DNA of 64,000 bases from Deltaproteobacteria bacterium (GCA_020845895.1 JADLEX010000078.1:801-64800), one strand, 5' to 3'; positions 1 through 47,044 are shown, counted from the stretch's first letter. A program made the numbers and translations. The notes: a model not told the origin generated them from the sequence alone.

Positions 1-24
1 TGGCTTTGGACCGGTTGGGACGCC

Positions 25-303
25 TTGAGCTTAGCATTGCCCGGATTGCCTGCGCTCGGACTAATAGGCAAACCTGGACGATTTGATGACGTTATGGATG
101 CTCTAGATAAATGGCTGGGCCCTGGGGCACGAACGCGCTTTAACAAAGCAAACGACTGGTTCAGGCAGTCGGAGGACGAATTAAAGCAGGTTCGGTTTGA
201 CAAGAATAATCCATCGCCCCATGATAAACCTCATTTACATGTTACAGAGTGGTCCCCAGATGGCGAGGAGATTCTAAACAGACGTTACTTCATCGATGAG
301 TGA
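25..303 (+). CDS. C-terminal end of a larger protein running off the left window edge; putative polymorphic-toxin C-terminal (CT) domain with a His-rich motif (HDKPHLHV), function unknown
   Basis: Frame is open to position 1, so the gene begins upstream of the window. GC drops to ~45-48% here against ~67% for the rest. The stop overlaps the start of the next ORF (ATGA-type overlap at 296-303), a typical toxin-CT/immunity layout. The H-x3-H-x-H motif could belong to a metal-dependent nuclease or peptidase fold. Confidence 0.35.
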   Translation: MSLALPGLPALGLIGKPGRFDDVMDALDKWLGPGARTRFNKANDWFRQSEDELKQVRFDKNNPSPHDKPHLHVTEWSPDGEEILNRRYFIDE

Positions 304-925
304 GGAGGACACAGTGACGACTGTACGAGGAGAGAGATACTTGGTGATCGATGAACTCGGAAGTTCATATCGTTATATTCATGACAAAGAAAATGACGTT
401 CATCGAATTGTATTAGAAGGTCAGCAAATTGAAATGGGTTTATGTCTGAGCAAGATCGGAAGCATAGAAATACCATTATGTGAAGGCCCGGCGACCTCTG
501 AGGAGAATTTCTATTATTTGAAAAACCTTGGACGAAAGTCTTTGAGATTTCTTGATATGATCGAACATCTACGTGTTGCAAACGGGAATCGCAAAGTGAT
601 TATTGATTGCATCTTGGTTAATAAGTACGCTAAACTATTTCTAAGAGAGTTGCAATTACTGAGCTTTGACGACTATGAACTTGCGATGTGGGGTTCGCGA
701 GCAAAAAGCTTAGAAAAAAAGGGAATTATCAACCAGCTCTCCGGGGATGATCATATGTTAAACATGGCGAGCGTTGCCGATGAGGTTCTCATCGACGCGT
801 ATGATAAGAAAGAAGTCGCTATAAAAATAAAACTTAATACAAGTTGTGGCAATGAAAGAGTTCGCGATGTTGACCGGTTTGTTCAAATATTACTTCAGGG
901 AATTTCTCGTTCGGACAATCCGTGA
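296..925 (+). CDS. Putative cognate immunity protein (209 aa, cytoplasmic, no TM) encoded in a very AT-rich segment
   Basis: GC is about 38-40%, far below the genome background. It is translationally coupled to the preceding CT fragment. It has no signal peptide or TM segment and no similarity to a family I recognise. Confidence 0.35.
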   Translation: MSEEDTVTTVRGERYLVIDELGSSYRYIHDKENDVHRIVLEGQQIEMGLCLSKIGSIEIPLCEGPATSEENFYYLKNLGRKSLRFLDMIEHLRVANGNRKVIIDCILVNKYAKLFLRELQLLSFDDYELAMWGSRAKSLEKKGIINQLSGDDHMLNMASVADEVLIDAYDKKEVAIKIKLNTSCGNERVRDVDRFVQILLQGISRSDNP

Positions 926-1008
926 CTTAGATGAATAGATTATAGCTTGGAAATTCTTAAGCGGTTAGCAAGAGGCCACCTGCGGCCACGTAATTCGAGG
1001 AGAAATCG

Positions 1009-1509
1009 ATGCGCGACGGACTGAAATCGATAGATCTGGGTGTTCTGGCGGCGTTGATCGTTCTTGCGCTGCTCGCGGCCTCCTGCGGCGGCGGGGGCGG
1101 GGACGACCCTTCGACACGCTCAGGGCCTAGCGGCGACGTGGATGACGACGACGGAGATGACGACGGCGGTTCCGGCGACGACGACGGGTCGGGCGACGAT
1201 GACGGCGGCGGGGACGACGACGGCGATGATGATGACGACGATGACGGCGCCGACGACGACACGGAGATTGCGTGGGTGCCGATTCCCGCGGGCGAGTTCG
1301 TCATGGGCTGCTCGCCGGGCGACACGGACTGCGAGGACCACGAGAAGCCGCCGCGCACGGTCATTCTCACGCAGTCGTTCCAGATGGCGGCGACCGAGAC
1401 GACGCAGGCCCAGTACGCCGCGGTGATGGGCTCGAACCCGAGCCACTTTGCCTCGTGCGGCGGCGACTGCCCGGTGGAGATGGTGTCGTGGGTCGATGCG
1501 AAGACATAG
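1009..1509 (+). pseudogene. Truncated FGE-sulfatase (SUMF1/DUF323) domain lipoprotein; only the N-terminal ~80 aa of the ~250-aa domain is present before the stop
   Basis: RBS GAGGAG lies upstream. A signal peptide with lipobox LLAASC is followed by a poly-Asp/Gly tether (DDDDGDDDGGSGDDDG...). Then come the FGE-domain motifs 'WVPIPAGEFVMGC' and 'PVEMVSWVDA'. The ORF ends abruptly at 1509, and the ~260 bp before the next gene carry no continuation in any frame. Confidence 0.5.
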
Positions 1510-1772
1510 GCCGTGAGTCGGAACTTGTCAGAGAGGGAATTCTCGACTCGGTCGGAAGGCTACGCTCGAAACGACGGTTTCAGCTTCGATATTCGCACGT
1601 CTTTCGCTGCCGCGTGACGTTGCCTGAATCCATCCGTGTCCGTATCGACGTCGTGAGCCGATGCCGCGTCCTTCAGCCGCCACTCGTCTTCGATCACGAC
1701 CGCGTCCGCGAGGCCACGAAAACGGCGAATTGCGTTGGAGATCGCGCGCTCCTCGTGTAGGATTCTTCGCCC

Positions 1773-3218
1773 ATGCACGCCGTCGCATCCGATTTCCGCG
1801 TCCTCCTACTGCACGCGCCGTCGTACGAGGTGCTCGGAAACGTCGCGGGCCGCCCGTGGCGCGGGCGCAGCACGGCGCACATTCTCGGTCTCGGCTACCT
1901 TCGCGGCGCGATTTCGGATATCGCCCAGTGCGTGGTCCTCGACGTTTCGACGCGGCCGGATCCCGCGCGCGCCGTGGAAGAGCATCTCAGCGAAAACCGC
2001 TACGACCTGATCGGCCTGTCCGCCATCGTCTTCAGCCTGGGTTGGGCGCAAGTGTTCGCGCAGATCGCCCGGCGGACGCACCCACGCGCCCTCGTGGTGC
2101 TCGGCGGCGCGTCCACGACGTTTCCGATTTCGCTGCTGTGGGAACGCGTGCCCGACGCGCATGGGATCGTCGTCGGGGAAGGCGAACTCGCCCTGCGTGG
2201 GCTCGTCGAGGCGATGCGGGCGGGAAACCCTCTCGACGGACTCCCGGGGATTGTCTGGTCGGGGTCGGGGCACGAACGCCCGGCGACGCCATCGCCGCAG
2301 CCGGAAATGGACGCACTGGAATTTCCGCGGCCGGCGCTCGGGCGGACGGGCATCGATCTGCATCCGCCGTACGGACTCTACGCGCCGATCGCGCCCTACG
2401 AGACCTCGCGCGGGTGCCCCTGGCCGTGCTCGTTTTGCACGATTCGCCGGGGGTATCGCAAACGGTCGGTCGAGCGATGCGCCGGCGAACTGGCGACGCT
2501 GTACGAATCGCGCGATATTCGCGAGATCTACTTCGTCGATCCCACGTTCACGCTCGACGCCGGGCGCACACGCCAATTGTGCGAGGCGATGATCGCGCGC
2601 AAAACGAAACTGCGGTGGAGCTGCAAAACACGCGTGGACTGCGTGGACGACGAAACGCTCGCCCTCATGAAGCGGGCGGGCTGCTACCAGATCGCGCTCG
2701 GCGTGGAATCGGGCGACGAGGAAATCCTGCGCGCGACGGAAAAGGGCTCGACGCCGGGGGAGGTCGTCGAGGCGATTCGGAAGACGAATCGGCACGGCAT
2801 CAAGTCAATTGCCTACATGATCGTCGGCCATCCGCTGGAAAGCGAGGCGACGCTGGCGCGCTCGCAGGCCATGCTGCGCGAGGCGAAACCCACGTATGCG
2901 AGCGTCACGGGCTACGTGCCGATCGGCGTGGACGAGCCGACGTTTGCCGAGTACTGGCGCGGGGTGTTTGACGGCACGCTCTGCGATTGGCCGCGTTATC
3001 GCGTCGTCGCCAGGTGGGTGCGAAATTTCTATCTCACGTTCTATCTGCGCCCGCGCACCGTGTGGACGATCCTGATGTTCCTCGCCGCGCCGCGAGGGAT
3101 GGAGCAGATCGTGCGCGCGGCTTTCGATTTCGCCCGAAAGGCCGTCTTTTCCAGTCGAAAGCCAAAACCGGTCGCCATGTCGTCCGCGGACACGGCACCC
3201 GCCGCGACCGGCGCCTGA
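1773..3218 (+). CDS. Cobalamin (B12)-binding radical SAM protein (class B radical SAM)
   Basis: An N-terminal B12-binding-like domain is followed by the CxxxCxxC cluster 'CPWPCSFC', then a radical SAM core (GGE-like, 'YQIALGVESGDEEIL'). Confidence 0.8.
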   Translation: MHAVASDFRVLLLHAPSYEVLGNVAGRPWRGRSTAHILGLGYLRGAISDIAQCVVLDVSTRPDPARAVEEHLSENRYDLIGLSAIVFSLGWAQVFAQIARRTHPRALVVLGGASTTFPISLLWERVPDAHGIVVGEGELALRGLVEAMRAGNPLDGLPGIVWSGSGHERPATPSPQPEMDALEFPRPALGRTGIDLHPPYGLYAPIAPYETSRGCPWPCSFCTIRRGYRKRSVERCAGELATLYESRDIREIYFVDPTFTLDAGRTRQLCEAMIARKTKLRWSCKTRVDCVDDETLALMKRAGCYQIALGVESGDEEILRATEKGSTPGEVVEAIRKTNRHGIKSIAYMIVGHPLESEATLARSQAMLREAKPTYASVTGYVPIGVDEPTFAEYWRGVFDGTLCDWPRYRVVARWVRNFYLTFYLRPRTVWTILMFLAAPRGMEQIVRAAFDFARKAVFSSRKPKPVAMSSADTAPAATGA

Positions 3219-3232
3219 CGGTAGCAGTCCAT

Positions 3233-4930
3233 TCAAGGAGTGGCTCCAGACGGGCACTTGGCCGGATCCACCGGCGGACCCACAATGGTTTTCACATCGA
3301 CGCCAAACCCCGGCAGAAATTTCCAGAAAGACCACCGCCCTTTTCGCCAGGCATCGGCGGAAAGACACGTCATTCGACCCGCCGGCGCGTCCAGCCAGCG
3401 CACAACGTGCCGCTCCCCCGGAAAATCGGGGCCGGTCACGAACCAGGAGTTTTTCAGGTCCGCGTATGGAATCAAGGATGGTCCAACACTTGTCGCCCAA
3501 ATTTCCGGACCCGCCGTCCACCAGGGCGAAATATCGTTAGTGAACGGAATGTCTTTGCGATGCACGGGCATGAGTTCATTCACCACAGCCCATGACCGAC
3601 CGGATTCCGCGCCGTGCGGCGGACAGGGCGCGGTAGTCATGTTTCCGAATAGCAGCGCGAGATAATCGGGGGACTTCGACCACAGATAGACGGGACGATC
3701 GCCCCACTGCGTCCGATATTGTCTCACCAAGGACACCGCGTAGAGATCGGGCAACAGGTACCCCTCGATGCGGATGTCCTCACTTCGCAACCGGGCCGCG
3801 TCACGCCGGATGTCGAACGCGGCGATATCCTTGGCCGGACGCTGGTGATACCGGACGATTCCAACCGCGCCGAATACAATCCACGCCACGACAATAACCC
3901 AAGTCAAGGAGGTTCCGAGGGGTCGGTGCCGGTATAGGGTTGCCAGTCCGCATGCGAGCAGGAGAAACAAATAGGGTTGAATCGGCACCCAGAATCGAAT
4001 GGAAAATTTCGTCGTTCCAAAGATCCGATAAGCCAGGATCGACGCCACGAAAACGAGCGATGTCACCACGACCACCGGGCCGCGTCCCTGCCGGATCCAG
4101 GCCATCATTCCAAACGCGGTGATTCCCGCGCCAACTACTCCCAAGATCGGAGTGCCGAAAAGAAAGCCCAGAAGAAATGCGATCATCATGACGGGTGAGA
4201 CGCCGGTATACGAGTCGATATTCAACAAGTGTTCACGGCAAGTGACGGCGTAGACGATAAATCCGGCCAAAGAAATTCCGCTGAGCGCCGCGCCAAACAC
4301 AACCTGGCCAAAAAGGCGCAGACGATGGCCCCGAATCTCGGTCTCGACCGAACACACCCGGATGAGGATCCAACAAACATGGATGCCGAGAAAAATCAGA
4401 TAGCCTTGCGTGAAGGCACCGACTGTCGAAACGATCAACCACCCGGCGATCGCAGCACGATTCCCGCGCGCCAACGCCGAATCAAGAAATAAATGAGCCG
4501 CCAACGCGTATGCGGCCACGGTGGAATAGGGGCGAACCTCTTGGGCATACACCACCTGCAGTGGCGACCACGCGACCAGGAGTCCGGCCAACAACGACTC
4601 AGGAACTCCCGCACGGTGACGTCTCGCCATCATGACGGCCAAAGGGACGCAGGCCAGGCTCATGATCGCCGGAAATATGCGCAAAACGGTATCCGAAGCG
4701 CCCCACATCGCAAGCCATCGAACGCCCTCGCTAAAGGACAGATTCGGCAGATAATAAATCATGCGATCCGGCAGGCATTTGAACGAGGCGATCAAGACCT
4801 CCATCGCCTCATCGTTCCATAGTGGTTTACGGCCGATGTTCCAGAACCGCGTAACGGTCGCGATCATGGAAAGCAGCGCGACGGACAGCCACAATCGCCG
4901 CGTCGGGTGAGACAAAAATGATTGCGCCAT
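3233..4930 (-). CDS. GT-C fold membrane glycosyltransferase, ArnT/PMT-like (GT39/GT83 family)
   Basis: A ~565-aa polytopic membrane protein. It has the N-terminal 'LWNDEA' (DE motif in the first periplasmic loop) typical of ArnT/PMT glycosyltransferases. There are more than 10 predicted TM helices. Confidence 0.65.
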   Translation of the reverse strand: MAQSFLSHPTRRLWLSVALLSMIATVTRFWNIGRKPLWNDEAMEVLIASFKCLPDRMIYYLPNLSFSEGVRWLAMWGASDTVLRIFPAIMSLACVPLAVMMARRHRAGVPESLLAGLLVAWSPLQVVYAQEVRPYSTVAAYALAAHLFLDSALARGNRAAIAGWLIVSTVGAFTQGYLIFLGIHVCWILIRVCSVETEIRGHRLRLFGQVVFGAALSGISLAGFIVYAVTCREHLLNIDSYTGVSPVMMIAFLLGFLFGTPILGVVGAGITAFGMMAWIRQGRGPVVVVTSLVFVASILAYRIFGTTKFSIRFWVPIQPYLFLLLACGLATLYRHRPLGTSLTWVIVVAWIVFGAVGIVRYHQRPAKDIAAFDIRRDAARLRSEDIRIEGYLLPDLYAVSLVRQYRTQWGDRPVYLWSKSPDYLALLFGNMTTAPCPPHGAESGRSWAVVNELMPVHRKDIPFTNDISPWWTAGPEIWATSVGPSLIPYADLKNSWFVTGPDFPGERHVVRWLDAPAGRMTCLSADAWRKGRWSFWKFLPGFGVDVKTIVGPPVDPAKCPSGATP

Positions 4931-5021
4931 GATGAGCGTATCTATTTTCGGTGCGTTTGCGCCACTGGGCGAAAGGCATCCCAGGACCGTTGTTGCCGGT
5001 CAAAATGTCGAACGAAAGCCC

Positions 5022-6479
5022 TCAAACCGTTGCCGCCTGAGCGACCGCGTCCGTGTCCATTCGACGACGGAACAGTAATCGACGGTAGTATTCGCCGGCC
5101 GTGATTCTCGCGCTCAAACGCGTGAATGATGCAAAGAGCAGGAATGGTCTCGTGCTGGCTGTGACGAGACGAAGAAGCCTTCGTGGCGAAAAAAATCGGC
5201 GGTAGGCGCGTTTCTGCGTGACCGACAGATCACGCCCGGTCGCCAAGGCATAGAACGAATGTTTGGGGTAGTAATCGTAGTCCAGGTCTTTAATTCGCTC
5301 GCCAAGTTCCGCCGCCGCAAGATCGTAAAGCGGCGTCTTGGGAAATGGAGTGAATGTGAAAAAACTCGCAAGGTTGAGTTTGGACTCCACGGCCAATTGC
5401 ACGGTCTTCTCGATTTCCTCCGCGGTTTCTGTCGGAAAACCGATGATGAAATATCCCTTCGTCAAGATTCCGATACTCGATGCGTAGCGAATGCTCTCCA
5501 TCAACCGTTCCGGTTTGAGCGCTTTTTTCAGAAGTTTCTGCACGCGATCGGAGCCCGATTCCACCGCGAAAGTCAGGTTGTAGCAACCGGCCCGCTTGAG
5601 CGCGTCGATCTGTTCCTTGTCGAGCAGGTCCCCCCGCACGCCGTTGGGGAACGCGATGTGGATTTTGTACGGTCGGGCTGCGATTTTTTCGCAAAACTCC
5701 AAAACGCGCCGCCGGTCGTAATTCCAGATGTCGTCCACGAACTGAATCTCATCTACGCGATGGTCGCGGACGAGAATATCGATCTCTTCCAGAACATGGT
5801 CCGTGGACCTCGCTCGCATTCTTCGACCCATCAGATTGTGACAATAAGTGCAATGGTACGGGCAACCTCTCGACGTCATGACCGGAGCGACGCGACGGCC
5901 GGCCTGAACCATCCCGTTCATGGAATTGACCGCGAGATAGTCTTTGAACCGAATGGATGACCAATCAGGAAATCCCAGGGCGTCCAAGTCCTGTGGGGCT
6001 TCCGAAACGGTTTCCGGTTGATCCAGATCGCCACGGGTGGCTACGCCGGGAATGGCGTCAGCATGTCGTTTCGAAAACAGGTTTCGCAAATACCGCGGGA
6101 ACGAATACTCGGCCTCGCCCAGGATGGCCGCATCGACCGCGGGACTGTCAAACGCGCATGCCCGATCGACCGTGGCCAACGGCCCCCCGGCCACGACGTG
6201 CGTCGCGGAATGAGCCCCTCGGACCACGTCGGCCGAGAGCGCAACGCCTTTTTGCTCGCCGAACAGCGCGCTGAGCCCGACCACATCGGGACGATAATCG
6301 GCGACCAATCTGGACAACGCGTCCAGCGGCTTTTTCTCGTTACGCGAGTCGTGAATACGAACGTCGACGTCTCCGCCAAAGTCCCTTTTGATGGCGGTGG
6401 ATAGCCAGAGTGGGCCGAGCGGCGGCGATGACGTCTTGACGGGAATAGGCTGACTGACGCGCACCATCAACACTCGCAT
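5022..6479 (-). CDS. Cobalamin-binding radical SAM protein
   Basis: Contains 'SRGCPYHCTYCHN' (Cx3Cx2C). The N-terminus 'MRVLMVRV...' is a Rossmann-like B12-binding domain. Start refined to the internal Met at 6479, because the upstream part of the longer ORF is Arg-rich nonsense overlapping the neighbouring gene. It sits ~7 bp downstream of the next radical SAM gene (operon). Confidence 0.8.
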   Translation of the reverse strand: MRVLMVRVSQPIPVKTSSPPLGPLWLSTAIKRDFGGDVDVRIHDSRNEKKPLDALSRLVADYRPDVVGLSALFGEQKGVALSADVVRGAHSATHVVAGGPLATVDRACAFDSPAVDAAILGEAEYSFPRYLRNLFSKRHADAIPGVATRGDLDQPETVSEAPQDLDALGFPDWSSIRFKDYLAVNSMNGMVQAGRRVAPVMTSRGCPYHCTYCHNLMGRRMRARSTDHVLEEIDILVRDHRVDEIQFVDDIWNYDRRRVLEFCEKIAARPYKIHIAFPNGVRGDLLDKEQIDALKRAGCYNLTFAVESGSDRVQKLLKKALKPERLMESIRYASSIGILTKGYFIIGFPTETAEEIEKTVQLAVESKLNLASFFTFTPFPKTPLYDLAAAELGERIKDLDYDYYPKHSFYALATGRDLSVTQKRAYRRFFSPRRLLRLVTASTRPFLLFASFTRLSARITAGEYYRRLLFRRRMDTDAVAQAATV

Positions 6480-8113
6480 GACGGACTCCCCTCGGTGGCA
6501 GGGTGTAAGGACTGCTCTCGAACCGCACCCGCGGATTGTGGGCGCACCCGACCAAAAGACTTTCGGAAACGACGGACGGTATCGCCGAGCGACCGGCCAA
6601 TACGTCCGCCCCCTTTTCCTCGGATTTCCGGCGTCGTCGCGACGGGTGCTCTGGGGAAACGCGGCATGAGCAAATCGGCGACGGCCTTTTCGATCATCAT
6701 GCCGAAATAGAAACGGCGCATACGCGCGCGCGCAATCGGTCGATAAAGCGTGCTCGCGAGCCGCAGCGGCCACGACCGGCTATAGTCGTTGATTTTGCGA
6801 TCAATGAATATCGACGCGAAATGCAGGCGTTCGAATTTTTCTTTTTTGTCGCCGTCATCCCACGAATACCGGTTCCATTCGCCCACGCGCGCCCAGCCTG
6901 CGAGCGAATCCGGCGCGCGAAATCCCGCCGCGACGGCATCCTGATAAACCTCGGTCCCTGGAAACGGCGTGAACAGATACAGAGGGCTGGTGCGAAATCG
7001 GGAATTGAGTTCGAGCAGATCCACCATCAGTTTCGCGGTCTGCCGCGTGTCGTCCTCGGTTTCGGAAGGGAGGCCGGTCATGAAGCTCGCGAAGAGGTTC
7101 AACTGAAAGTTTGCGAGTCGCCGAACCTGCTCGACCACCTGCGGCACGTCGCCCTGCTTCTTGATGTACGTGCGGATGCGTTCCGAGCCGCTCTCGATGC
7201 CGATCGTAACCCTCTTGCAACCGCTTTTTTCCACGAGTCGCAGGTCGTCATCCGTCAGCCGGGCGAGGCTGTAGATGTCCACGCCCTGCACCTCGTAAGT
7301 CAGATCCGTGGTGAGAAACAGTTCCGCCAGACGCAGCGCGCGTTTCTTGTTGATGAAGAAATTGTCGTCGACAAAATAGACCGAACCGAAATCGTGTTTT
7401 CTGCGCAGCGCGAGGATGTGCTCGAAGAGCCGCTCGGGCTCGATCGCGCGCCAGCGCGTGTCGTTCATGACGGTGTTGTAGCAATAGGTGCAGTCGTACG
7501 GGCAACCGCGGCTGCCCTGCGTGTAAAGCGTCGGCACGCCCTGATACGTGGGAAGATACGGACGCAGATCGGCGTCGATGGTGGGCAGCAGCGGGATGCG
7601 TTCGCCGCGCATCAGCGGGCGTTTCGCCGTGACCGAGACACGGCCGTTCTCGGAAAACGCGATTCCGGGGATCTCGCCGAGCGGGCGGCGCTCGATCAGA
7701 TACGAAACGATTTCGCCGAAGGTCTCCTCGCCCTCGCCGATGACCACGGCGTCCACGAGTTCGTGCGCGGCGGTCTGCTGGGCCGTGAGACTCGCGTGCA
7801 CGCCGCCCCAGATCACCGGCGTCGGCCCCGATTCGCGCACGATGCGCGCGGCGTCCATGGCGTTGACGAGCATGTCGGAGGTGTAAGACGTCAGGCCGAC
7901 GGCGACCGTCGGTGCTTCGCGAAGCCAAGCTGCGAGCGTCGATCGCCAACCGGAGTCGAGCCGCGCGTCGAGAAGACGTACGCGCACTCCCTCGGGAACG
8001 CCGGTCGAAACGGCCATCAGGCCGAGCGGAGGGGAGGGCGCCGAGCGGAGAAAATCCATGTAGCCGATCGCCGGCTGGATCAGGATGACCTGCGGATTCG
8101 CGGATGTCGGCAT
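6467..8113 (-). CDS. Cobalamin-binding radical SAM protein
   Basis: Contains 'GSRGCPYDCTYCYNT' (Cx3Cx2C). The N-terminus 'MPTSANPQVILIQPAIGYMDFLRSAPSPPLGLMAV' is a B12-binding domain. Start refined to Met at 8113. It is co-directional with the 5022..6479 and 3233..4930 genes. Confidence 0.8.
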   Translation of the reverse strand: MPTSANPQVILIQPAIGYMDFLRSAPSPPLGLMAVSTGVPEGVRVRLLDARLDSGWRSTLAAWLREAPTVAVGLTSYTSDMLVNAMDAARIVRESGPTPVIWGGVHASLTAQQTAAHELVDAVVIGEGEETFGEIVSYLIERRPLGEIPGIAFSENGRVSVTAKRPLMRGERIPLLPTIDADLRPYLPTYQGVPTLYTQGSRGCPYDCTYCYNTVMNDTRWRAIEPERLFEHILALRRKHDFGSVYFVDDNFFINKKRALRLAELFLTTDLTYEVQGVDIYSLARLTDDDLRLVEKSGCKRVTIGIESGSERIRTYIKKQGDVPQVVEQVRRLANFQLNLFASFMTGLPSETEDDTRQTAKLMVDLLELNSRFRTSPLYLFTPFPGTEVYQDAVAAGFRAPDSLAGWARVGEWNRYSWDDGDKKEKFERLHFASIFIDRKINDYSRSWPLRLASTLYRPIARARMRRFYFGMMIEKAVADLLMPRFPRAPVATTPEIRGKGGGRIGRSLGDTVRRFRKSFGRVRPQSAGAVREQSLHPATEGSPSCEC

Positions 8114-8248
8114 GCATTCTCCGCGGATTCGGCCCCGCAAACGCATCGCGGTCCGCATGGATTCACGGAATGCTCGCAGTCTATCGCCGAATCCGTGGCC
8201 GCGTAAGCTGTATGGATTACAAATCCTTCGTGCGCCCGGTGCCAAACG

Positions 8249-9718
8249 TTATCGGCGCGACTCTTCCAGGCGCTTGACGCGGTTCTCATCCACGCGCACG
8301 AACACGGTTTTCGTTTGCTCCACCACCACGCGGCCCGGCGGCGCGCCTTTGGGTTTGCGGACGTATTTGCGCTGCGTGTAACGCACCTCGCCCGCGCCCT
8401 GTTTGACGAGTCGCGACCCGCGCAGCGCCAGCGTCGCGGCGTCCAGCAAGGTTTCCGACGACAACTCCTGCCCCGGCGGGACCTTGACGACGACGTGGCT
8501 TCCCGACTCGCCCGAGACGTGGAACCACCAGTCGTTTCCCACGCCGATGCGAAACGTGACCTCGTCGTTTTCGCGGGCGTCGCGGCCGACCACGATGAGC
8601 GATCCGTCCTTCGCGACGTATCGCCTCGGTCCCGATAGCTGCGGCGTTGATTTCCGTGTCGTCGCCGCTGTGACGCCTATTGGATTGCGCGGTTTCGGGA
8701 TGAAATTTTCGGCCTCGGCGCGCGCGCGCAGAACGCCCAATGCGTCATCGGGCGCGCGCTCGATCTCCTGCGCCAACGCCGCGGCCAGATCCGCGCGGCG
8801 CTTCGCCTCGGGGATCTGCTCGGCGAGCGCCGCGAGCTTGCGTTCGCCGCGACGGGCTCGGGTAAACAACCGATCGACCTGCCCGGCGGCGCCCAATTTG
8901 GGATCGAGCACGATCACGCGCGCGGGACCGCCGTACCAATCCTCGATTTCGATACGATCCAGTCCCTTTTTGACGAGATGCATCGACGCGGCGAGATGCT
9001 CGGCGTCGGCTCGAAGGCGCACGGGGTCGCCGGCGTCCTCGGCTTCGCGCGTGAGTTTCGCCAGATGCTCTCGCGCCCGCTTCGCCGACTTGCGAACCGC
9101 GGCGAGCAATTCCGCCCGTGCGCGGTCACGCCGCGACCGATCGCGTTCCCGCGCGTAGAACCTTCCGATCGCGAACGCGATATCGCCCTCGCCGAAGTCG
9201 CGGACAGTGCGCTGCGCGGCCGGACCCTGGGCCGGCGGCGCGACCGCGTGCGGCGGCTGATAAACGTCGCCGGGCACGCAGGGGCGTGGCCCCGATCCCG
9301 CGCGCGCCGCGTCGAGCACGCGCCCTTCTCCGTCGATGACGATCAGGTTGCCGTGCCGGCCGAAGAGTTCGGCGACGAGCGTGCGAACGCCGTCCGCGCG
9401 CTCCACGGTCAGCGTCGCGACACGGTCGCCGGGCACGACGGCGAGTTCGACCACGCGACCGCCCTCGAGGTGTTTGCGCGCCGTGGCGCAGAACCGCGGC
9501 GGCGTGGGGTCATGCGCGACGCGCTCGTCGGCCAGCGCGATGTGCGCGAGGCCCGGCTCGCACGTCACGATGAGCCACGCATCCAGGTCGCTCCCGTGAA
9601 GCTGGATACTGAGCGTGTGGTCGGCCGTCTGGTAGATCTTCTGGACGCGCGCGCCCTCGACTTGGCCGCGCATCGCGTCGACGACGAAGGTCAACTCCCG
9701 CGATGTGAGCGTCACGCG
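8249..9718 (-). CDS. rqcH: NFACT-family protein (FbpA/RqcH-like ribosome quality control factor) with a C-terminal NFACT-R (DUF814) domain
   Basis: The C-terminal motif 'GRDARENDEVTFRIGVGNDWWFHVSGESGSHVVVK' matches DUF814/NFACT-R. GTG start at 9718 overlaps the stop of the upstream gene (GTGA). The longer N-terminal extension in the ORF track is Arg-rich junk overlapping the neighbouring gene. Confidence 0.65.
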   Translation of the reverse strand, partial: RVTLTSRELTFVVDAMRGQVEGARVQKIYQTADHTLSIQLHGSDLDAWLIVTCEPGLAHIALADERVAHDPTPPRFCATARKHLEGGRVVELAVVPGDRVATLTVERADGVRTLVAELFGRHGNLIVIDGEGRVLDAARAGSGPRPCVPGDVYQPPHAVAPPAQGPAAQRTVRDFGEGDIAFAIGRFYARERDRSRRDRARAELLAAVRKSAKRAREHLAKLTREAEDAGDPVRLRADAEHLAASMHLVKKGLDRIEIEDWYGGPARVIVLDPKLGAAGQVDRLFTRARRGERKLAALAEQIPEAKRRADLAAALAQEIERAPDDALGVLRARAEAENFIPKPRNPIGVTAATTRKSTPQLSGPRRYVAKDGSLIVVGRDARENDEVTFRIGVGNDWWFHVSGESGSHVVVKVPPGQELSSETLLDAATLALRGSRLVKQGAGEVRYTQRKYVRKPKGAPPGRVVVEQTKTVFVRVDENRVKRLEESRR

Positions 9719-28824: not shown

Positions 28825-30567
28825 ATGCCGAAATTCGGAATTGCAGATCGAGGCGGGCCATCGCCGTCCAATCCCTCGATGTTCGACACGTCTGTCGTGA
28901 CGGGGATGATCGTCGCGGCGTATGCATTCGCCGTGCTGGCCCTCGGCACGCGGCCGGTCTTCGACAACGACATCGGCATCCACATCGGCGTGGGCCGCAC
29001 GATCTGGGAAAATCGGGCGGTCACCGGCCATGATTTTCATTCCCACACCGCGCCCGGCGCCGATTTTCTGGACCACGAATGGCTCGCGCGGCTTCTGTTC
29101 TTCGCCATCGACGGGGCGGGCGGCAACGCGGGGCTTGTCGCGTTTCAGGCGCTGACGGTGCTGATCGTTTTTGTTCTGCTGGCACGGAGCAATCGCGAGC
29201 ACGGCCTCGCGACGGCTCTCGTCCTTCTCGCCGCGGGCGTGGTGCTTTCCACACGCGTGCAGGTCCGCCCGCACGTGATCGCCTGGGTGTTGATCGCTCT
29301 TCAAATTGTTTTTCAAAAAAAAGGCAACCGCACGGCGATCGCGGCCTTGCTGGCGCTGTGGGCCAACATCCACGGCAGTTTTCTGCTCGGTGTCGCAATG
29401 GCGCTCGTCTGGTCGGCCGAGCGCTGGTGGACCTACCGCGACCGAAAATGGTTCGCATGGGCCGCGGCATTCGCGCTCGCGCCGATGGCGAATCCCTTCG
29501 GTTGGCGGATCTACGGCTTTGCCAGGCAAATCAAGGACATCAACTTTTTCGTTTCCGAGTGGCAGCCCTATTCACTCGCATCGGTTTACCCCTGGGTGAT
29601 CGCCGCGGTATTCGGGGCCATCGTCATCGACTTGATTCGACGGCGTGAGAATCTCCTGTTCGACGGCGCGAGGATCGCACTGCTCGCGGGACTGTCCTGG
29701 TCGGCCATGCGCCATGGGTCCGAAGCGATGTTGTACGCCGCGCCGATCTTTGCCGCGCGCTACGGTCCGGCGCTCGCGCGGATGCCGCGACGCGCGGGCA
29801 TCGCGAGCGCGTCGATGGTCGCTGTCGCCGCCGTGGCCGGAGGCGTCTATTTAGCCGCCGAGCGGCAGTCGTTTCGCTTCACCATCGATTCGCACGCGCT
29901 CCCAATTCGGGCGATAGATTTCATCAACCGTGAAGAGCCGACCGGTGAGATTTTCAACGATTACGATTTCGGCGGCTACCTGCTCTGGAAACTCGACCCA
30001 CGCCGAAAGGTTTTTGTCGACGGTCGGCTCGAGGTCTATGGCCCCGGCGGCCACCTTGACGAATATCTGCGCGTGTCCAATGGCGTGCCCGGTTGGCAAT
30101 CCATCCTGGACAAGTATGGCGTGAACATGTGCGTCGTTCGCGCTGACCGCCCGATTGCCAAGCAGCTTGACGAGAGAGGCGCGTGGGAGATGGTCTACTT
30201 CGATTACAACGCGGCGATTTTCCTGCGTCGCGGAGCGTCGCCCCAAATTCGTCGCATCACGAACTTCCGCCCGTGGGGCCACCGCGACAGGGACAATTTC
30301 CCGGTTCTGATCGACGAGGCGAAGTATTTGCTTGGCCAAAACCCCGAATTTTTCGGCGGCTTCAAGATGCTGGGATTCGTCCAGTATCGCTCCGGCGACT
30401 ATGCCGGCGCGCGCGACAGCATGCGCGAATACCTGCGCCTTTTTCCCGGCGGCGTGCGTTCGGAGCAAACCATGGAAATGCTCGGGAACCTTTCGGTGCG
30501 AGGGTTCGGACTCGACACCACGCACGGCAATACGGGGGGCATCATGCCCCAGTTCGACGAGCCGTGA
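28825..30567 (+). CDS. Large polytopic membrane protein with a periplasmic C-terminal domain; possible GT-C-like glycosyltransferase. Start may be the internal Met at 28879.
   Basis: About 8-10 TM helices in the N-terminal ~330 aa, then a soluble ~250-aa domain. Its stop is 2 nt from the start of the YfhO-like gene (operon). I cannot place the family with confidence. Confidence 0.45.
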   Translation: MPKFGIADRGGPSPSNPSMFDTSVVTGMIVAAYAFAVLALGTRPVFDNDIGIHIGVGRTIWENRAVTGHDFHSHTAPGADFLDHEWLARLLFFAIDGAGGNAGLVAFQALTVLIVFVLLARSNREHGLATALVLLAAGVVLSTRVQVRPHVIAWVLIALQIVFQKKGNRTAIAALLALWANIHGSFLLGVAMALVWSAERWWTYRDRKWFAWAAAFALAPMANPFGWRIYGFARQIKDINFFVSEWQPYSLASVYPWVIAAVFGAIVIDLIRRRENLLFDGARIALLAGLSWSAMRHGSEAMLYAAPIFAARYGPALARMPRRAGIASASMVAVAAVAGGVYLAAERQSFRFTIDSHALPIRAIDFINREEPTGEIFNDYDFGGYLLWKLDPRRKVFVDGRLEVYGPGGHLDEYLRVSNGVPGWQSILDKYGVNMCVVRADRPIAKQLDERGAWEMVYFDYNAAIFLRRGASPQIRRITNFRPWGHRDRDNFPVLIDEAKYLLGQNPEFFGGFKMLGFVQYRSGDYAGARDSMREYLRLFPGGVRSEQTMEMLGNLSVRGFGLDTTHGNTGGIMPQFDEP

Positions 30568-30569
30568 GA

Positions 30570-32738
30570 GTGCCGCGTCTCGGCCACGGGTTACTCGCCG
30601 CCTTGGTCATCGCAACCGCGCTGGGGGCATATGGTCAGCTTCTGACTCCGGGCCGCGTGTTGTACTCGCAGCACAGCGACCTGATGGCGCAGCACTTGGC
30701 GACCAAAACGATCCTCCATGAGTCGATCCGCTCCGGGCACGGCATCCCGGAATGGCGCGACGACCAGTTCGCGGGAAACACCGCCGCGGGCAATCCGCAG
30801 GCGATGGGTCTCTACCCCTTTCACTCGCTTTTTCTGGTGCTCGATCCCGTTCATGCCGTCGGGCTGACGTTTTTCCTCAATGTTCTTGCGTCGGCCGCGT
30901 CGTTCTTCTTGTTGGGCTGCGCTCTCGGTCTGGGGCGGGAAGCGCGTTGGTTCATGGCGGCGGCGGGACTGGTTTGGTTCAAATTGATGGCGGCGATTTA
31001 CGCGGGTTGGTTGTCCAACACGATGGTGATCGCCCTGCTGCCGGCTTTTTTCGCGGCGGTCGTTCACATGTCGCGCAGTCCGTCCATTGGGGCGGCGGTC
31101 GCGTTGGCTATTTCCGCGGCTCTTTGCGCCACCGGTGGGCACTTCCAGTATTTTTACTACGCGGTTCTGTTCGCCGCGGGATTTTTTGTCTGGAATCTGA
31201 TCCGGCCTCTGCGCTCCGGCGATCGTGCGGGACTCGCTTCGATGGTTCGCTTTTTGGCGGTCGCCCTGGTTCTTGGGTTGGGACTTTCCGCGTACGTGCT
31301 GCTTCCTTTGGCCCTCGACGCGCCGCTCCTCTCGCGCACGACGCCTTCGTACGAGTTTTTTCTCGCCGACCACGCGTTCACGCCTCGCTCGCTCCTGAGT
31401 TTTCTCACTCCCGCGGCTCTGCGGAACGCTGTCGGCGCGCGGGGCGTGGAGTTCTGGGAAGACGTCGGCTATTTCGGCGTCGTTCCTTTGCTGCTCGCCG
31501 CGTTCGCGATCATTCGTGGACGTCGAAACCCGCAAGTCGTCGCGTTTGCCCTGGCGCTGGCGATGACGATCCTGCTGACCGTTGATTCGCCGCTGCTGCG
31601 TTTCTGCTTCGATTACGTTCCGGGCTACGCACTGTTTCGCTCGCCCAACCGAATGTTGTTTCTCACGAGCGTTTTCGGAATCGGCCTTGCGGGGATCGGC
31701 CTGCAGGCCCTGCTGGAAATCGTCGAGAGCCACGGCTTGCAAAAGACCGTGTCGGCCATCGCCATTGCGTTGATCATCATCGTCGGAGGCGAAGGCGTCT
31801 ATCGCGCGCGGAATCTCCTGACGACGGCGCCGATCGACGAGGTCTGGCCCGCGCCGTCCGCGAACGAGTTTCCGGCCCCCGGCAACGCGCGTGAGCGAGT
31901 GCTCATCGCCGGAAGATCGACGATGAACTATGGACGGCTCGCGGCACTGGGACTGCCCTCGGTGAACGGCTACGACCCGTACAACTACACGCACATTTGG
32001 CGTTACCTCGATCTCATGACGCGAGGCCACGTGTCGGACGTCGGCGTCCGCGTATGGGGCGACACCCGCGGCATTGTTCGATGGGATCTGGCCGACGCCC
32101 TGGGAGTCGGGTGGATCGTCACGCCGGAGCCGATCGGGGATCTTCCGCCGTGGCTGGAACTCGTTTCGGAAATTCCCGACGCACCCAACTTTGTTTTTTA
32201 CAAAGGCATGGAGCGCGCGAGGCGATACGTTTATCGCAATACGAACGCGCGACCTCGCGCGTTTTGGGCGCGGCGCGCGATCAGCGCCGATCCCGAACAC
32301 CCCGCCCATCACCTTGCGGAACAGGCCGACTTGAGATCCACCGCCATCGTCGAAGGGTGGGGGTTTTCCGCCGTCAATTTCCAGGGGGCGGACGACGTGG
32401 TGACCGTTGTCGAATCGCGCACCGGCGTGCTGGCCCTCGAAACGATCAGCGCGCAAAAAAGCTTCCTGGTGATGAGCGAGATCTGGCATCCCGGTTGGCG
32501 GCTGACCGTGGACGGCGCTCCCGCGGAACTTTTTCGCACCGATATCGCGCTCATGGGAGCGTGGATCGATCCGGGCCACCACCGCATGGAGTTGCGCTTC
32601 CATCAACCGCTTCGGCAAGCGGGGATCGGGCTGAGCCTGATCAGCGCGGCGGCCATTTTCTGTAATTTCCTCTGGAGATTTCGTCGTCATCGGTGGACGG
32701 AATGTTCGCATGACCGCAGGTATTTGCCGAATACGTGA
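30570..32738 (+). CDS. YfhO-family membrane protein (GT-C-like, ~720 aa)
   Basis: Multi-TM N-terminal region followed by a C-terminal beta domain containing 'SEIWHPGWRLTVDGAPAELFRTDIALMGAWIDPGHHRMELRFH'. This resembles the conserved 'yy-PGW-ka-vDG' C-terminus of YfhO proteins. GTG start at 30570. Confidence 0.6.
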   Translation: MPRLGHGLLAALVIATALGAYGQLLTPGRVLYSQHSDLMAQHLATKTILHESIRSGHGIPEWRDDQFAGNTAAGNPQAMGLYPFHSLFLVLDPVHAVGLTFFLNVLASAASFFLLGCALGLGREARWFMAAAGLVWFKLMAAIYAGWLSNTMVIALLPAFFAAVVHMSRSPSIGAAVALAISAALCATGGHFQYFYYAVLFAAGFFVWNLIRPLRSGDRAGLASMVRFLAVALVLGLGLSAYVLLPLALDAPLLSRTTPSYEFFLADHAFTPRSLLSFLTPAALRNAVGARGVEFWEDVGYFGVVPLLLAAFAIIRGRRNPQVVAFALALAMTILLTVDSPLLRFCFDYVPGYALFRSPNRMLFLTSVFGIGLAGIGLQALLEIVESHGLQKTVSAIAIALIIIVGGEGVYRARNLLTTAPIDEVWPAPSANEFPAPGNARERVLIAGRSTMNYGRLAALGLPSVNGYDPYNYTHIWRYLDLMTRGHVSDVGVRVWGDTRGIVRWDLADALGVGWIVTPEPIGDLPPWLELVSEIPDAPNFVFYKGMERARRYVYRNTNARPRAFWARRAISADPEHPAHHLAEQADLRSTAIVEGWGFSAVNFQGADDVVTVVESRTGVLALETISAQKSFLVMSEIWHPGWRLTVDGAPAELFRTDIALMGAWIDPGHHRMELRFHQPLRQAGIGLSLISAAAIFCNFLWRFRRHRWTECSHDRRYLPNT

Positions 32739-32912
32739 GTCCCCTTACGAGTGTTTTCTCGTACCACTGGTTACAAATACAACACTGGGATTTTTCGATG
32801 CTCGCTCACGACGATGCTCCCGTCGCGTCCGCGCCCTGCAGGCGCCGGAAGCCGGGAGATCGACCGGATCGTGGCGGACAAATGGATGGACCGTCTTCCG
32901 TTGAGGGATCAA

Positions 32913-35162
32913 ATGCGTTCATGGCTTTTTTGCGTTGTGGTGTCGGCGTTTCTCGCATCCCTGATCGCCTGCGGCGAGCCGGGAGATGAAACGGCTTCGG
33001 AGCCGGTTTCCGAAACGTCTGATCTCGCGACCGGCCATTGGGCATCCGAGGTACAGTCCCGCATCCGCGTCGAGGACTACCGGCTTCAACCGGGTGACGG
33101 CGCGTTCACGGGACGTAATCCCGCCCAGCGCTTTACCATCGAAATGGATGCCGGCGGCGTCATGCTCTCCGTGACCGCGCATGACACCGACCAGGACTGG
33201 GCGTGGTCCACCGTGGGCTTTGGCCGCGAGGGATTGGTCCTCGACGCGGCACCCGCCTCTCCCGCCTTGGGGGAGTGCGCGTTGCCTCCCGAATACGGCT
33301 TCGGCGACGTTTGCCTGTCGTTGATCGAGTACGACCGCGGAGAATTGGTGGAGTGGTACGCGAACCGCGTGGGCGGCCTGGAGCAGGGCTTCGAGGTCTT
33401 CGGCGAGCCGACCGGGAATGGACTTCTCGTCATCGAGGGTCGGGTTTCAACGGCGCTTACGGGTCGAGGAAACGCGGATCTCTCCGAGATTCTTTTCGCG
33501 GATGAAACAGGCGACGTGCTGCGTTACGCGGGCCTGGCGGTGTGGGACGCCAACGGCGTTCCGCTCGATTCCTGGATGGAATGGACGGATCCGGACACGA
33601 TCCGCCTGATCGTGGATGATGCGGGCGCACTCTACCCGATCACGGTCGATCCCGGCCTGTCCGCCGCACCGGACTGGCTTTATGAAGGCAACCCAGACTA
33701 CGCCTACTTCGGTCATTCCGTCTCCGGCGCGGGGGATGTGAACAACGACGGCTACGACGACGTGATCGTCGGAGCGTACAGGTACGACAATGGTCAGAAC
33801 GGTGAGGGCCGAGCCTACACATTCCTCGGATCGGTCTCGGGGTTGCAGTCGTCTCCGGTCTGGACCTATGAGAGCGACCAGGCCTACGCTTCTTTTGGCT
33901 GGTCCGTTTCCGGCGCGGGGGACGTGAACAACGACGGCTACGATGACGTCATGGTCGGAGCACCTGACTACGACAACGGCCAGGTCGGAGAGGGACGTGC
34001 CTACGCCTTCTTGGGGTCGGGTTCGGGCTTGCAGTCCTCGCCGGTCTGGACCTATCAGAGCGGCCAGTCTGAGGCCCGATTCGGCTTTTCTGTTTCCGGC
34101 GCGGGGGACGTGAACGGCGACGGAAGTGCCGACGTGATCGTCGGAGCAGATAGACATAGCAATGACCAACTCGGGGAGGGCAGTGCCTTCGTCTTCCTGG
34201 GATCGGGCTCGGGAATTCAGTCGTCGCCTGCTTGGACCTACGAGAGCAATCAGGCCTATGCCTATTTTGGCGGTTCCGTTTCCGGCGCGGGGGATATCAA
34301 TGCGGACGGCTACGACGACGTGATTGTGGGTGCGTATTCGTATGAAAACGGCCAAGGCGCTGAGGGCCGTGCCTACGCCTTTTTAGGGTCGGGGTCGGGG
34401 TTGCAGTCGTCTCCGGTCTGGACTCATGAGAGCAATCAGGCCTACGCCCATTTCGGCTTTTCCGTTTCCGGCGCGGGCGACGTGAACAACGACGGCTACG
34501 ACGACGTGATCGTCGGAGCGCATTGGTATGACAACGGCCAGGACAACGAGGGCCGTGCCTACGCCTTCTTGGGGTCGGGCTCGGGTTTGCAGTCCCCGCC
34601 AGTCTGGACTTATGAGAGCGATCAGACCAACGCCGATTTCGGCTGGTCCGTTTCCGGCGCGGGAGATGTGAACAACGATGGCTATGACGACGTGATCCTC
34701 GATGCCCAAGCTTACGGAAACGGCCAGAATGGAGAGGGCCGCGCCTATGTCTTCTTGGGTTCGGACTCTGGGGTAGAATCGTCGCCAGTCTGGACGGCCG
34801 AGAGCGATCAGGCGAACGCCCGGTTTGGCAGTTCCGTTTCCGGCGCGGGGGACGTGAACGGCGACGGAAGTGCCGACGTGATCGTCGGCGCATATCGGTT
34901 CTCCATTGGCCAAAGCAATGAAGGCCGTGCTTACGTGTTTCACGGCGAAGCGCCAACCACCACAACCACGACCACAACGACCACAACTACCACGACGACG
35001 GAAACGACGACATCCACGACAACCACCACATCGACGACCTCAACGACGGCTTCGTCGACCACCACAACAGTTCCGACGACGACAGGGTCCTCGACCACGA
35101 CGACGACGTCCGGCGGCGGTGGCGGAGATGACGATGACGACGGTGGCTGCTGCGGCTGCTGA
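32913..35162 (+). CDS. FG-GAP (integrin-alpha-like beta-propeller) repeat lipoprotein with a ~45-residue poly-Thr/Ser tract and a terminal 'GGCCGC'
   Basis: Lipobox 'LIACG'. There are 8 or more FG-GAP repeats ('SVSGAGDVNNDGYDDVIVGA...GEGRAY'). The C-terminus reads 'TTTTTTTTTTTTTTETTTSTTTTTSTTSTTASSTTTTVPTTTGSSTTTTTSGGGGGDDDDDGGCCGC*'. Confidence 0.75.
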   Translation: MRSWLFCVVVSAFLASLIACGEPGDETASEPVSETSDLATGHWASEVQSRIRVEDYRLQPGDGAFTGRNPAQRFTIEMDAGGVMLSVTAHDTDQDWAWSTVGFGREGLVLDAAPASPALGECALPPEYGFGDVCLSLIEYDRGELVEWYANRVGGLEQGFEVFGEPTGNGLLVIEGRVSTALTGRGNADLSEILFADETGDVLRYAGLAVWDANGVPLDSWMEWTDPDTIRLIVDDAGALYPITVDPGLSAAPDWLYEGNPDYAYFGHSVSGAGDVNNDGYDDVIVGAYRYDNGQNGEGRAYTFLGSVSGLQSSPVWTYESDQAYASFGWSVSGAGDVNNDGYDDVMVGAPDYDNGQVGEGRAYAFLGSGSGLQSSPVWTYQSGQSEARFGFSVSGAGDVNGDGSADVIVGADRHSNDQLGEGSAFVFLGSGSGIQSSPAWTYESNQAYAYFGGSVSGAGDINADGYDDVIVGAYSYENGQGAEGRAYAFLGSGSGLQSSPVWTHESNQAYAHFGFSVSGAGDVNNDGYDDVIVGAHWYDNGQDNEGRAYAFLGSGSGLQSPPVWTYESDQTNADFGWSVSGAGDVNNDGYDDVILDAQAYGNGQNGEGRAYVFLGSDSGVESSPVWTAESDQANARFGSSVSGAGDVNGDGSADVIVGAYRFSIGQSNEGRAYVFHGEAPTTTTTTTTTTTTTTTETTTSTTTTTSTTSTTASSTTTTVPTTTGSSTTTTTSGGGGGDDDDDGGCCGC

Positions 35163-35189
35163 AGAAGATTCCCGATTCCGAACAAAAAA

Positions 35190-35208
35190 GCCCGGCTCGC
35201 CGCCGGGG
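35190..35208 (+). terminator. GC hairpin GCCCGGC-tcgcc-GCCGGGG after the first FG-GAP gene (weak; no T-tract)
   Basis: The same hairpin core as the terminators at 28764 and 40201, but it lacks the U-tail. Confidence 0.25.
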
Positions 35209-37887: not shown

Positions 37888-37931
37888 GAACAACGCCCGT
37901 CGGCACACTTTCCTCAATAAGGGAGAACGTC

Positions 37932-47040: not shown

Positions 47041-47044
47041 TTCC

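Follow-up and report, generated by a model that had tools for sequence, protein, structure and literature searches.

What could three radical S-adenosylmethionine (SAM) enzymes with cobalamin (B12)-binding domains be doing beside a single membrane glycosyltransferase? The question is raised by a locus near one end of a 64,000-nucleotide stretch of a Deltaproteobacteria bacterium genome (GCA_020845895.1, JADLEX010000078.1:801-64800), which was analysed over its whole length and is referred to here as the window. Three genes for B12-binding-domain radical SAM proteins (rSAM_A, rSAM_B and rSAM_C) and one gene for a membrane protein of the GT-C glycosyltransferase fold lie together between positions 1773 and 8113, and all four open reading frames (ORFs) were found where an earlier reading of the sequence (the original prediction) had placed them. 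We tentatively propose, giving it somewhat less than an even chance, that the four genes form a periplasmic glycosylation module, i.e., one for the tailoring of cell-envelope glycoconjugates, in which the donor sugar would be tailored by radical SAM chemistry.

Arrangement of the four genes

The first gene of a co-directional trio on the minus strand, rSAM_C (6467..8113, 548 amino acids), is followed by rSAM_B (5022..6479, 485 amino acids) and then by the GT-C gene (3233..4930, 565 amino acids). As read from the ORF coordinates, rSAM_C and rSAM_B overlap by 13 nucleotides (nt; 6467-6479) and 91 nt separate rSAM_B from the GT-C gene, while rSAM_A (1773..3218, plus strand, 481 amino acids) converges on the GT-C gene with 14 nt between the two stop codons. 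The locus had been described as an operon-like set of two radical SAM genes and a glycosyltransferase gene with minimal spacing, on which a third radical SAM gene converges, and these distances agree with that description. The products of rSAM_B and rSAM_A were 100% identical to annotated NCBI proteins of a "Deltaproteobacteria bacterium" metagenome-assembled genome (MAG), which supports the start codons chosen for both genes, and a ribosome-binding-site-like GGAGA lies 5' of the rSAM_C ATG at position 8113.

The intergenic region 5' of rSAM_C, after the NFACT gene (8114..8248, minus strand), is probably the promoter region of the rSAM_C/rSAM_B/GT-C unit, as suggested by an alignment with the related loci L001, L005 and L007 in which a TTGTAA block, a TAGACT-like block and a TCCA block were conserved. 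Because a sigma-70 consensus scan of positions 900-8500 did not find a promoter, this function is put forward as putative, and the trio may be co-transcribed. Terminator-like sites in the same interval numbered 12 against 7.4±3.2, which was not above chance.

Identification of the membrane protein

Database models gave little direct information about the 565-residue protein. A Pfam search returned no domain at E<=1e-3, with PMT_2 (PF13231) appearing only below threshold (E=0.003, 18.3 bits against a cutoff of 26.1); the same search reported no PMT or MIR domain, and in NCBIfam no model of any kind matched. A profile built from the family only (A1) had no match in the Protein Data Bank (PDB) even at E<=1. 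The family profile of the GT-C protein reached 9,377 proteins, all through the N-terminal ~370 residues, and 9 of 10 that were sampled were PMT_2 proteins. The link to PMT_2 is thus transitive only, since the protein's own score lies below the cutoff and it is the sampled profile matches that belong to PMT_2.

A profile built from 60 sequences (A2) was more informative and matched in the PDB the structures of ArnT (5ezm; E=1.3e-7, residues 21-364), AglB and a fungal PMT (5.7e-5). The AlphaFold2 (AF2) model calculated from the same 60-sequence alignment reached a predicted local distance difference test score (pLDDT) of 80 and a predicted template modelling score (pTM) of 0.87, and it replaced an earlier model from a 3-sequence family alignment that was unusable (pLDDT 40). 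Foldseek comparison of the model against the PDB returned STT3, ArnT, PglB, AglB, Pmt4, ALG9/12 and Emb/Aft, all at probability 1.0, with E values of ~1e-5 to 1e-6 and identities of 10-15% for the ArnT/PMT-type matches. Residues D40, E41 and R84 were invariant in alignment A2, and W38, G77, Q130, E131, R133 and Y135 were nearly so. The HMMER alignment placed D40-E41 (codons at 4808..4813, minus strand) over a P-D-E-G segment of ArnT 5ezm, and this acidic pair falls in the first extracytoplasmic loop, just after the first transmembrane (TM) helix, TM1. Based on the profile search, the ArnT/PMT/AglB matches, the confident AF2 model and the invariant Asp40-Glu41, the protein is assigned, from its sequence and its model, to the GT-C-fold superfamily as a transferase with the usual, catalytic-type acidic pair after TM1. 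The call of a GT-C glycosyltransferase in the original prediction is therefore upheld by these further analyses, whereas its more precise label of a GT39/GT83-type enzyme went too far: with PMT_2 below threshold, no MIR domain and no NCBIfam match, the similarity to those families is at the superfamily level only.

About 11 TM helices occupy residues 1-365 and are followed by a soluble C-terminal domain (residues ~365-565, ~200 amino acids) with three invariant cysteines. Both the first loop and the C-terminal domain would face the periplasm, as read from the order of the helices in the model rather than from a computed topology. Judging from its superfamily, the enzyme would use a polyprenyl-phosphate-linked sugar as donor.

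The protein is rare. Three relatives were found in a 5.8-billion-protein database, and when 1.8 billion representatives were searched exhaustively with the family profile, two relatives came out at E<1e-30; the next match, beyond the sequences P0001-P0004, had E=8e-19. In this search the C-terminal ~200-residue domain matched nothing outside its own family. Only about six lineages carry this GT-C, which on sequence comparison is a new and very narrow family. It is also by far the fastest-evolving gene of the region, with a ratio of nonsynonymous to synonymous polymorphism (pN/pS) of ~0.4 relative to a 98% identical allele, a comparison that involves few changes. That the gene is a pseudogene was considered and rejected, as the ORF is intact in all lineages and many motifs are invariant.

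The three radical SAM proteins

All three radical SAM proteins have the class B architecture, i.e., an N-terminal B12-binding domain and a radical SAM core in which CxxxCxxC is found at residue 215 (rSAM_A), 206 (rSAM_B) or 204 (rSAM_C). For rSAM_A, rSAM_B and rSAM_C in turn, Pfam scores were 80, 85 and 77 bits for Radical_SAM (cutoff 29.5) and 45.9, 40.4 and 50.4 bits for the B12-binding domain (cutoff 32.1). Their pairwise identities are only 26-29%, and at this level of sequence similarity they are judged to be old, divergent paralogues. Beyond its orthologues, the next homologues of rSAM_A were only 31-34% identical.

Comparison with curated NCBIfam clades (BchE, HpnJ, HpnR, PhpK, ApyD, MgmA, BzaD, KedN5, Trp 2-C-methyltransferase, the ladderane-type TIGR04072 and others) did not place any of the three proteins, as no model reached its cutoff (best scores of 110-143 bits against cutoffs of 251-775). 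The top similarities, all below their cutoffs of 480-750 bits, were to BchE, PhpK, ApyD and Sden_1168, and membership in BchE, HpnJ, HpnR, PhpK and the other curated clades was rejected on these scores. A position inside a characterised clade such as BchE, which the original prediction had named as evidence against itself, was thus not found. The closest solved structures were AprD4 (6fd2) and MgmA (9ccb), at E values of 1e-10 to 1e-20; TokK, CysS and OxsB came next. All components of the locus belong to known superfamilies, with the radical SAM proteins appearing, by sequence, as new members outside the curated clades.

All three radical SAM proteins end in hydrophobic, basic tails that are kept in the family consensus and are compatible with membrane association. 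These tails bear on an alternative in which a membrane lipid or polyprenol is what the enzymes methylate, cyclise or cross-link, as HpnP, HpnR, HpnJ and ladderane-type enzymes do, and the GT-C either glycosylates this lipid or uses it as a carrier. Sub-threshold similarity to HpnJ, HpnR and TIGR04072, a "lipid biosynthesis B12-binding/radical SAM protein" (E ~1e-30), and the recurrence of GDSL/SGNH hydrolases as neighbours in other lineages would fit such lipid tailoring. The scores lie 3- to 6-fold under the family cutoffs, though, genes for the biosynthesis of hopanoids, isoprenoids or fatty acids are not amongst the immediate neighbours of the module in the window or in orthologous loci, and the clusters of distant lineages described below point to sugar activation and not to lipid synthesis. 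Tailoring of a lipid is for these reasons considered unlikely.

Conservation in close relatives

Every contig that carries this GT-C (L001/L002, L003, L004, L006, L007/L008 and L097) has rSAM_C, rSAM_B and the GT-C gene in this order and direction, with rSAM_A convergent on them. Identities to the window were 83-88% for rSAM_A orthologues, which always converge on the GT-C gene, 80-82% for rSAM_C orthologues (in L001, L003, L005, L006 and L007), 73-76% for rSAM_B orthologues and 50-53% for GT-C orthologues. Amongst the flanking genes, ACS and isocitrate dehydrogenase were 95-98% identical, the metallophosphoesterase 92-97% and NFACT 76-80%. The conservation across relatives that had been suggested as a check was thus found in each carrier of the GT-C; these relatives are so close that the support is weak, because synteny is expected from ancestry alone where flanking housekeeping proteins are 92-98% identical.

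Divergence as strong as that of the GT-C (~50% identity where housekeeping proteins are at ~95%) would be expected if phages or predators exerted diversifying pressure on a surface structure. GC content at third codon positions (GC3) also differs along the module, with values of 0.67 for the GT-C gene and rSAM_B, 0.76 for rSAM_C and 0.82 for rSAM_A, compared with 0.81-0.90 for flanking genes, and the dip at GT-C/rSAM_B is smaller in the relatives L001 and L007. Taken with the 50% divergence of the GT-C, this low GC3 could stem from allelic replacement or from a relaxation of codon bias.

On the left side of the locus, the region 5' of the rSAM_A ATG that is conserved between the window and L001 and L007 is no longer than ~95 nt (1680..1772, plus strand); similarity is lost upstream of ~1680, and this point marks the left border of the module here. 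Past this border the relatives carry genes for proteins of 358, 201 and 1009 residues that are all absent from the window, which instead has a truncated FGE-sulfatase-domain lipoprotein and AT-rich DNA. The 358-residue protein, encoded beside rSAM_A, has C-terminal TM segments and only a weak TauE match. The 201-residue protein (L001 14596-15201; also in L007) is of low complexity with an N-terminal hydrophobic segment and is encoded two genes away from the module, and the 1009-residue protein (L001 15296-18325) combines a weak N-terminal GT4 (GT-B) domain with ~650 charged, coiled-coil-like residues. By this comparison of sequences, the four genes came through a rearrangement of their left flank as a unit.

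These data bear on the simplest alternative, namely that the four genes are only neighbours whose shared order reflects recent common ancestry, with the radical SAM proteins and the GT-C acting in unrelated processes. Mere adjacency would explain the synteny next to such similar housekeeping genes, the different evolutionary rates (50-53% identity for the GT-C against 73-85% for the radical SAM proteins), the GC3 range of 0.67 to 0.82 within the module and the fact that a GT-C was not seen in 84% of the rSAM_B-family loci examined below. It does not readily account for the survival of the module through the left-flank rearrangement or for the 13-nt overlap and small gap within the co-directional trio. 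It is also at odds with the ~30-fold enrichment of GT-C genes beside B12-type radical SAM genes in unrelated phyla, with translational coupling in several, and with the recurrence of the rSAM_C-rSAM_B pair in three other lineages, two of which have a GT-C within 5.5 kb. Taken together, we regard coincidental adjacency as improbable and turn to the distant lineages from which the glycosylation-module reading draws independent support.

Association of radical SAM and GT-C genes in distant lineages

Hundreds of proteins with 30-42% identity make up the rSAM_B family, which spans many phyla, including Thermodesulfobacteriota, Myxococcota, Planctomycetota, Omnitrophota, Elusimicrobiota, Nitrospirota, Acidobacteriota, Calditrichota, Spirochaetota and others, and its members are often arrayed, with up to ten paralogues per locus. 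Eighty loci from the Genome Taxonomy Database (GTDB; 1.24 Mb in total) with 30-40% identical rSAM_B homologues were scanned using a hidden Markov model (HMM) of the GT-C alignment. A PMT_2-like GT-C was detected in 13 of the 80 loci, and in 12 of these 13 it lay <=1.5 kb from a B12-type radical SAM gene. The density of GT-C genes was 0.14 per 100 kb away from radical SAM genes in these loci and 4.3 per 100 kb near them, i.e., ~30-fold higher (binomial p=2.7e-6). A functional link between B12-type radical SAM proteins and GT-C transferases in glycan pathways, as had been suggested for the window, thus received independent support from distant phyla.

Individual loci showed close couplings of the genes. 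The GT-C stop overlaps the radical SAM start in L034 and L038, a gap of 13 nt separates the two genes in L043, and the order rSAM-rSAM-GT-C in L085 matches that of the window. In L011, a 35% identical rSAM_B homologue is convergent with a PMT_2 gene, and in L096 two PMT_2 genes lie in one operon with a 31% identical rSAM_A homologue. Apart from the orthologues, the homologue nearest to rSAM_B (42%) belongs to L009, where it lies in a cluster of at least ten B12-type radical SAM genes with a PMT/PMT_2 gene. The rSAM_C-rSAM_B pair itself recurs in L009/L010, L079 and L019, with rSAM_C homologues of 34-39% identity directly upstream of rSAM_B homologues, and in two of these three lineages a GT-C lies within 5.5 kb of the pair.

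Two further candidates were rejected during these comparisons. A 557-residue protein encoded after the rSAM_C/rSAM_B pair in L009 was considered as a cryptic GT-C, and it showed no BLAST or hhalign similarity, with four TM segments at its N-terminus and a C-terminus rich in repeats; a bona fide PMT gene is found 5.5 kb beyond it. The possibility that GT-C-adjacent radical SAM proteins form a subgroup closer to the paralogues of the window was also dismissed, as median scores were 223 bits near a GT-C and 226 bits away from one. As side observations, the array of L009 (1-21431; GCA_026388655.1, an AT-rich Proteobacteria MAG) and of L010 also holds two SAM methyltransferases and a 750-residue protein with a Spermine_synth domain. 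Likewise, the single-strand operon of L096 (1-21422, from a groundwater metagenome) includes four or five SPASM-type radical SAM proteins, four GDSL/SGNH hydrolases, an aminotransferase and a sulfatase-family protein.

On one strand, the Smithella locus L044 encodes a B12-type radical SAM protein, a GT-C, a small GT2, another B12-type radical SAM protein, two other radical SAM proteins and two B12-type ones, followed by a protein from a gene of no known type, an amine-oxidase/Glf-like flavoprotein, a NAD-dependent sugar epimerase/dehydratase, an NTP-transferase-HAD-kinase fusion and a GHMP kinase. Read from its sequence, gene content of the L044 type is that of sugar activation coupled to lipid-carrier-dependent periplasmic glycosylation, and it agrees with the three-component paradigm considered below. 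GT2 genes also adjoin the radical SAM/GT-C pair in L029 and L038, and overall a GT2 was found in 6 of 13 GT-C-positive and 9 of 67 GT-C-negative loci (p=0.013), a test that is partly circular given that the HMM was built from four of these loci.

A different substrate for the radical SAM proteins also needs to be weighed here. They could modify (e.g., C-methylate) a secreted or membrane protein or peptide in the cytoplasm, which a PMT-like GT-C would O- or C-glycosylate after export. PMT-family GT-C enzymes glycosylate proteins, and SPASM-type radical SAM enzymes, typical peptide modifiers, are the commonest neighbours of the rSAM_B family and occur in L011 and L096 as well. Amongst the NCBIfam similarities of the window proteins are enzymes for ribosomally synthesised and post-translationally modified peptides (RiPPs), namely ApyD and rSAM_ocin_1, and the MCR glutamine methylase; MgmA (9ccb) is one of their two nearest solved structures, and the low-complexity ~200-residue protein with its N-terminal hydrophobic segment two genes away in L001 and L007 could be imagined as a target. 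Every one of these NCBIfam scores is far below cutoff, though, and the ~200-residue protein is absent from the window while the module is kept. The gaps of 14, 91 and ~135 nt leave no room for a precursor gene, and no conserved small ORF of the kind expected for a RiPP precursor was found in the module gaps or 5' of rSAM_A, where only ~95 nt are conserved; this is a weak test. The distant clusters, in turn, hold sugar-nucleotide and GT2 genes and not recognisable precursors, proteases or exporters. Little probability is consequently assigned to a protein or peptide substrate, and a sugar donor tailored by the radical SAM proteins is retained as the preferred reading.

Comparison with known systems

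The proposed glycosylation module was compared with three-component systems, i.e., GtrA/GtrB with a Gtr-type GT-C, CsbB/GtcA/YfhO, ArnC/ArnD/ArnE-F/ArnT, and a polyprenyl-phosphoribose synthase, MATE protein and GT136 enzyme with an auxiliary epimerase (PMC11127046). Within this paradigm, the sugar that is incorporated can be diversified by an auxiliary enzyme, and a substrate-binding module is found at the C-terminus of the GT-C (Kelly et al. 2024, PMC11127046). Like these systems, the module has a GT-C whose first external loop carries an acidic motif and whose C-terminal domain is soluble, it has accessory cytoplasmic enzymes encoded beside the GT-C that could tailor the donor, and in the distant loci L029, L038 and L044 a small GT2 stands beside the GT-C. 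It differs from them in that no nearby GT2 synthase was found for the module in the searches made and no flippase was identified, with no search dedicated to flippases, and in that its accessory enzymes are three B12-binding-domain radical SAM proteins.

Compared with ArnT (GT83) and with PMT/PMT_2 (GT39-like), the GT-C of the window shares the fold, a remote profile match and the invariant Asp-Glu after TM1, and differs in its 10-15% identity, its PMT_2 score below cutoff, the lack of a reported MIR domain and a C-terminal ~200-residue domain that is specific to its family. The radical SAM proteins share their domain architecture with class B enzymes such as GenK/GenD1, Fom3, TokK, CysS, OxsB and MgmA and with the B12-independent relative AprD4; unlike these, to which their similarity is remote (E 1e-5 to 1e-20), they lie outside curated NCBIfam clades, and their genes share an envelope-type setting with a GT-C gene rather than belonging to an antibiotic or cofactor cluster. 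Roles of class B radical SAM enzymes have been established in antibiotic, cofactor, bacteriochlorophyll, hopanoid and RiPP pathways, and those of GT-C transferases in lipopolysaccharide, teichoic acid, arabinan and protein glycosylation. Full-text literature searches found no publication on the combination of B12-type radical SAM proteins with a GT-C, in line with the original prediction, which was aware of no characterised example of it.

Proposed mechanism

By analogy with the GtrA/GtrB/GT-C and ArnC/ArnD/ArnT systems and with pentofuranose systems that have an auxiliary epimerase, we infer a route in which the substrate would be a sugar that enzymes from other genomic loci activate and load onto polyprenyl phosphate. 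Each cytoplasmic radical SAM protein would use its [4Fe-4S] cluster and SAM to generate a 5'-deoxyadenosyl radical, and this radical would abstract hydrogen at an unactivated carbon in the donor sugar, be it nucleotide-linked or polyprenyl-phosphate-linked. If these proteins are methylases, methyl-cobalamin would then deliver the methyl group; C-methylation is the commonest chemistry of class B radical SAM enzymes. The presence of three non-orthologous paralogues would imply three distinct steps or positions. The tailored lipid-linked sugar would be flipped across the membrane, and the GT-C, through its Asp40/Glu41 site, would transfer it in the periplasm to an envelope acceptor, for which lipid A, another glycolipid or a protein had been suggested, with the C-terminal domain possibly contributing to acceptor binding.

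Several observations weigh against this scheme. In addition to the limited value of synteny amongst close relatives, AprD4 is one of the two nearest solved structures and is a dehydratase rather than a methylase, having the B12-binding domain without using B12, so that methylation is not implied. A GT-C is present in only 16% of the rSAM_B-family loci, and the neighbours of this family over the 80 loci are mixed, comprising radical SAM proteins (including SPASM types), flavoproteins, TPR proteins, PMT_2 proteins, GDSL hydrolases, GT2 enzymes and SAM methyltransferases; the family is probably functionally heterogeneous. The GT-C proteins of the distant loci are not orthologues of the one in the window, and these loci are not phylogenetically independent, as L034 and L038 are both from Desulfosudaceae and L044 and L085 both from Smithella, leaving about ten distinct lineages that contribute. 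Close to the module itself, tblastn and HMM searches with four GT2 sequences found no GT2 polyprenyl-phosphate sugar synthase in the 64-kb window, L001 or L007. No flippase was identified near the module, where no flippase-specific search was run and the GT-C gene is the only gene for a membrane protein, and no sugar-nucleotide gene was identified in the window or in orthologous loci. A pathway complete in itself would be expected to include such genes, and if the model is right, these functions must be encoded elsewhere.

Should the link be real, it would add a new chemical layer to bacterial surface glycans, in which unactivated sugar carbons are modified, in lineages that are almost entirely uncultured, and for radical SAM enzymology the locus would be a small, well-defined system to study, with three enzymes and a single transferase. 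A more general and more doubtful proposal is that B12-type radical SAM proteins are a widespread, undescribed tailoring class for the lipid- or nucleotide-linked donors of GT-C glycosyltransferases. If true, uncultured and mostly anaerobic bacteria of many phyla would decorate their envelopes with radical-tailored, e.g., multiply C-methylated, sugars, and the window would hold a minimal version with three radical SAM proteins and a GT-C, in which the transferase is private and rapidly diversifying.

Other features of the window

To the left of the module, positions 1-925 are AT-rich (GC 0.40-0.48 compared with ~0.64 for the window), and this composition suggests foreign DNA. They contain the 3' end of an ORF running off the window (1-303) and an overlapping ORF for 209 amino acids (296-925) that has no Pfam or NCBIfam match; as a guess, these could be a toxin C-terminus and its immunity protein. 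The adjoining ORF at 1009-1509 is lipoprotein-like. Its N-terminus resembles a signal/lipobox sequence and leads into a long linker rich in Asp and Gly, and of an FGE-sulfatase domain no more than the initial ~100 positions are present; the ORF appears truncated because its stop codon follows this partial domain. Since similarity to the relatives starts only at ~1680, the rearrangement breakpoint would lie between this ORF and that position. A full FGE-sulfatase protein is encoded directly after a B12-type radical SAM gene in the distant locus L043, which may be a coincidence.

Further into the window, positions 30183-40166 hold four large co-directional ORFs with GC3 values of 0.66-0.73, encoding a YfhO-family membrane protein (a GT-C-type family), two FG-GAP repeat proteins and a 745-residue protein that has no Pfam match. 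This region is possibly a second envelope-glycosylation locus, 22 kb from the module. At 46966-47057, ARAGORN called a tRNA-Arg(TCG) on the plus strand and an overlapping antisense "tRNA-Arg" on the minus strand, of which Rfam supports the plus-strand call only. As this tRNA overlaps the 5' end of the 932-residue ORF at 44253-47048 (minus strand), the true start of that ORF has to be located further downstream.

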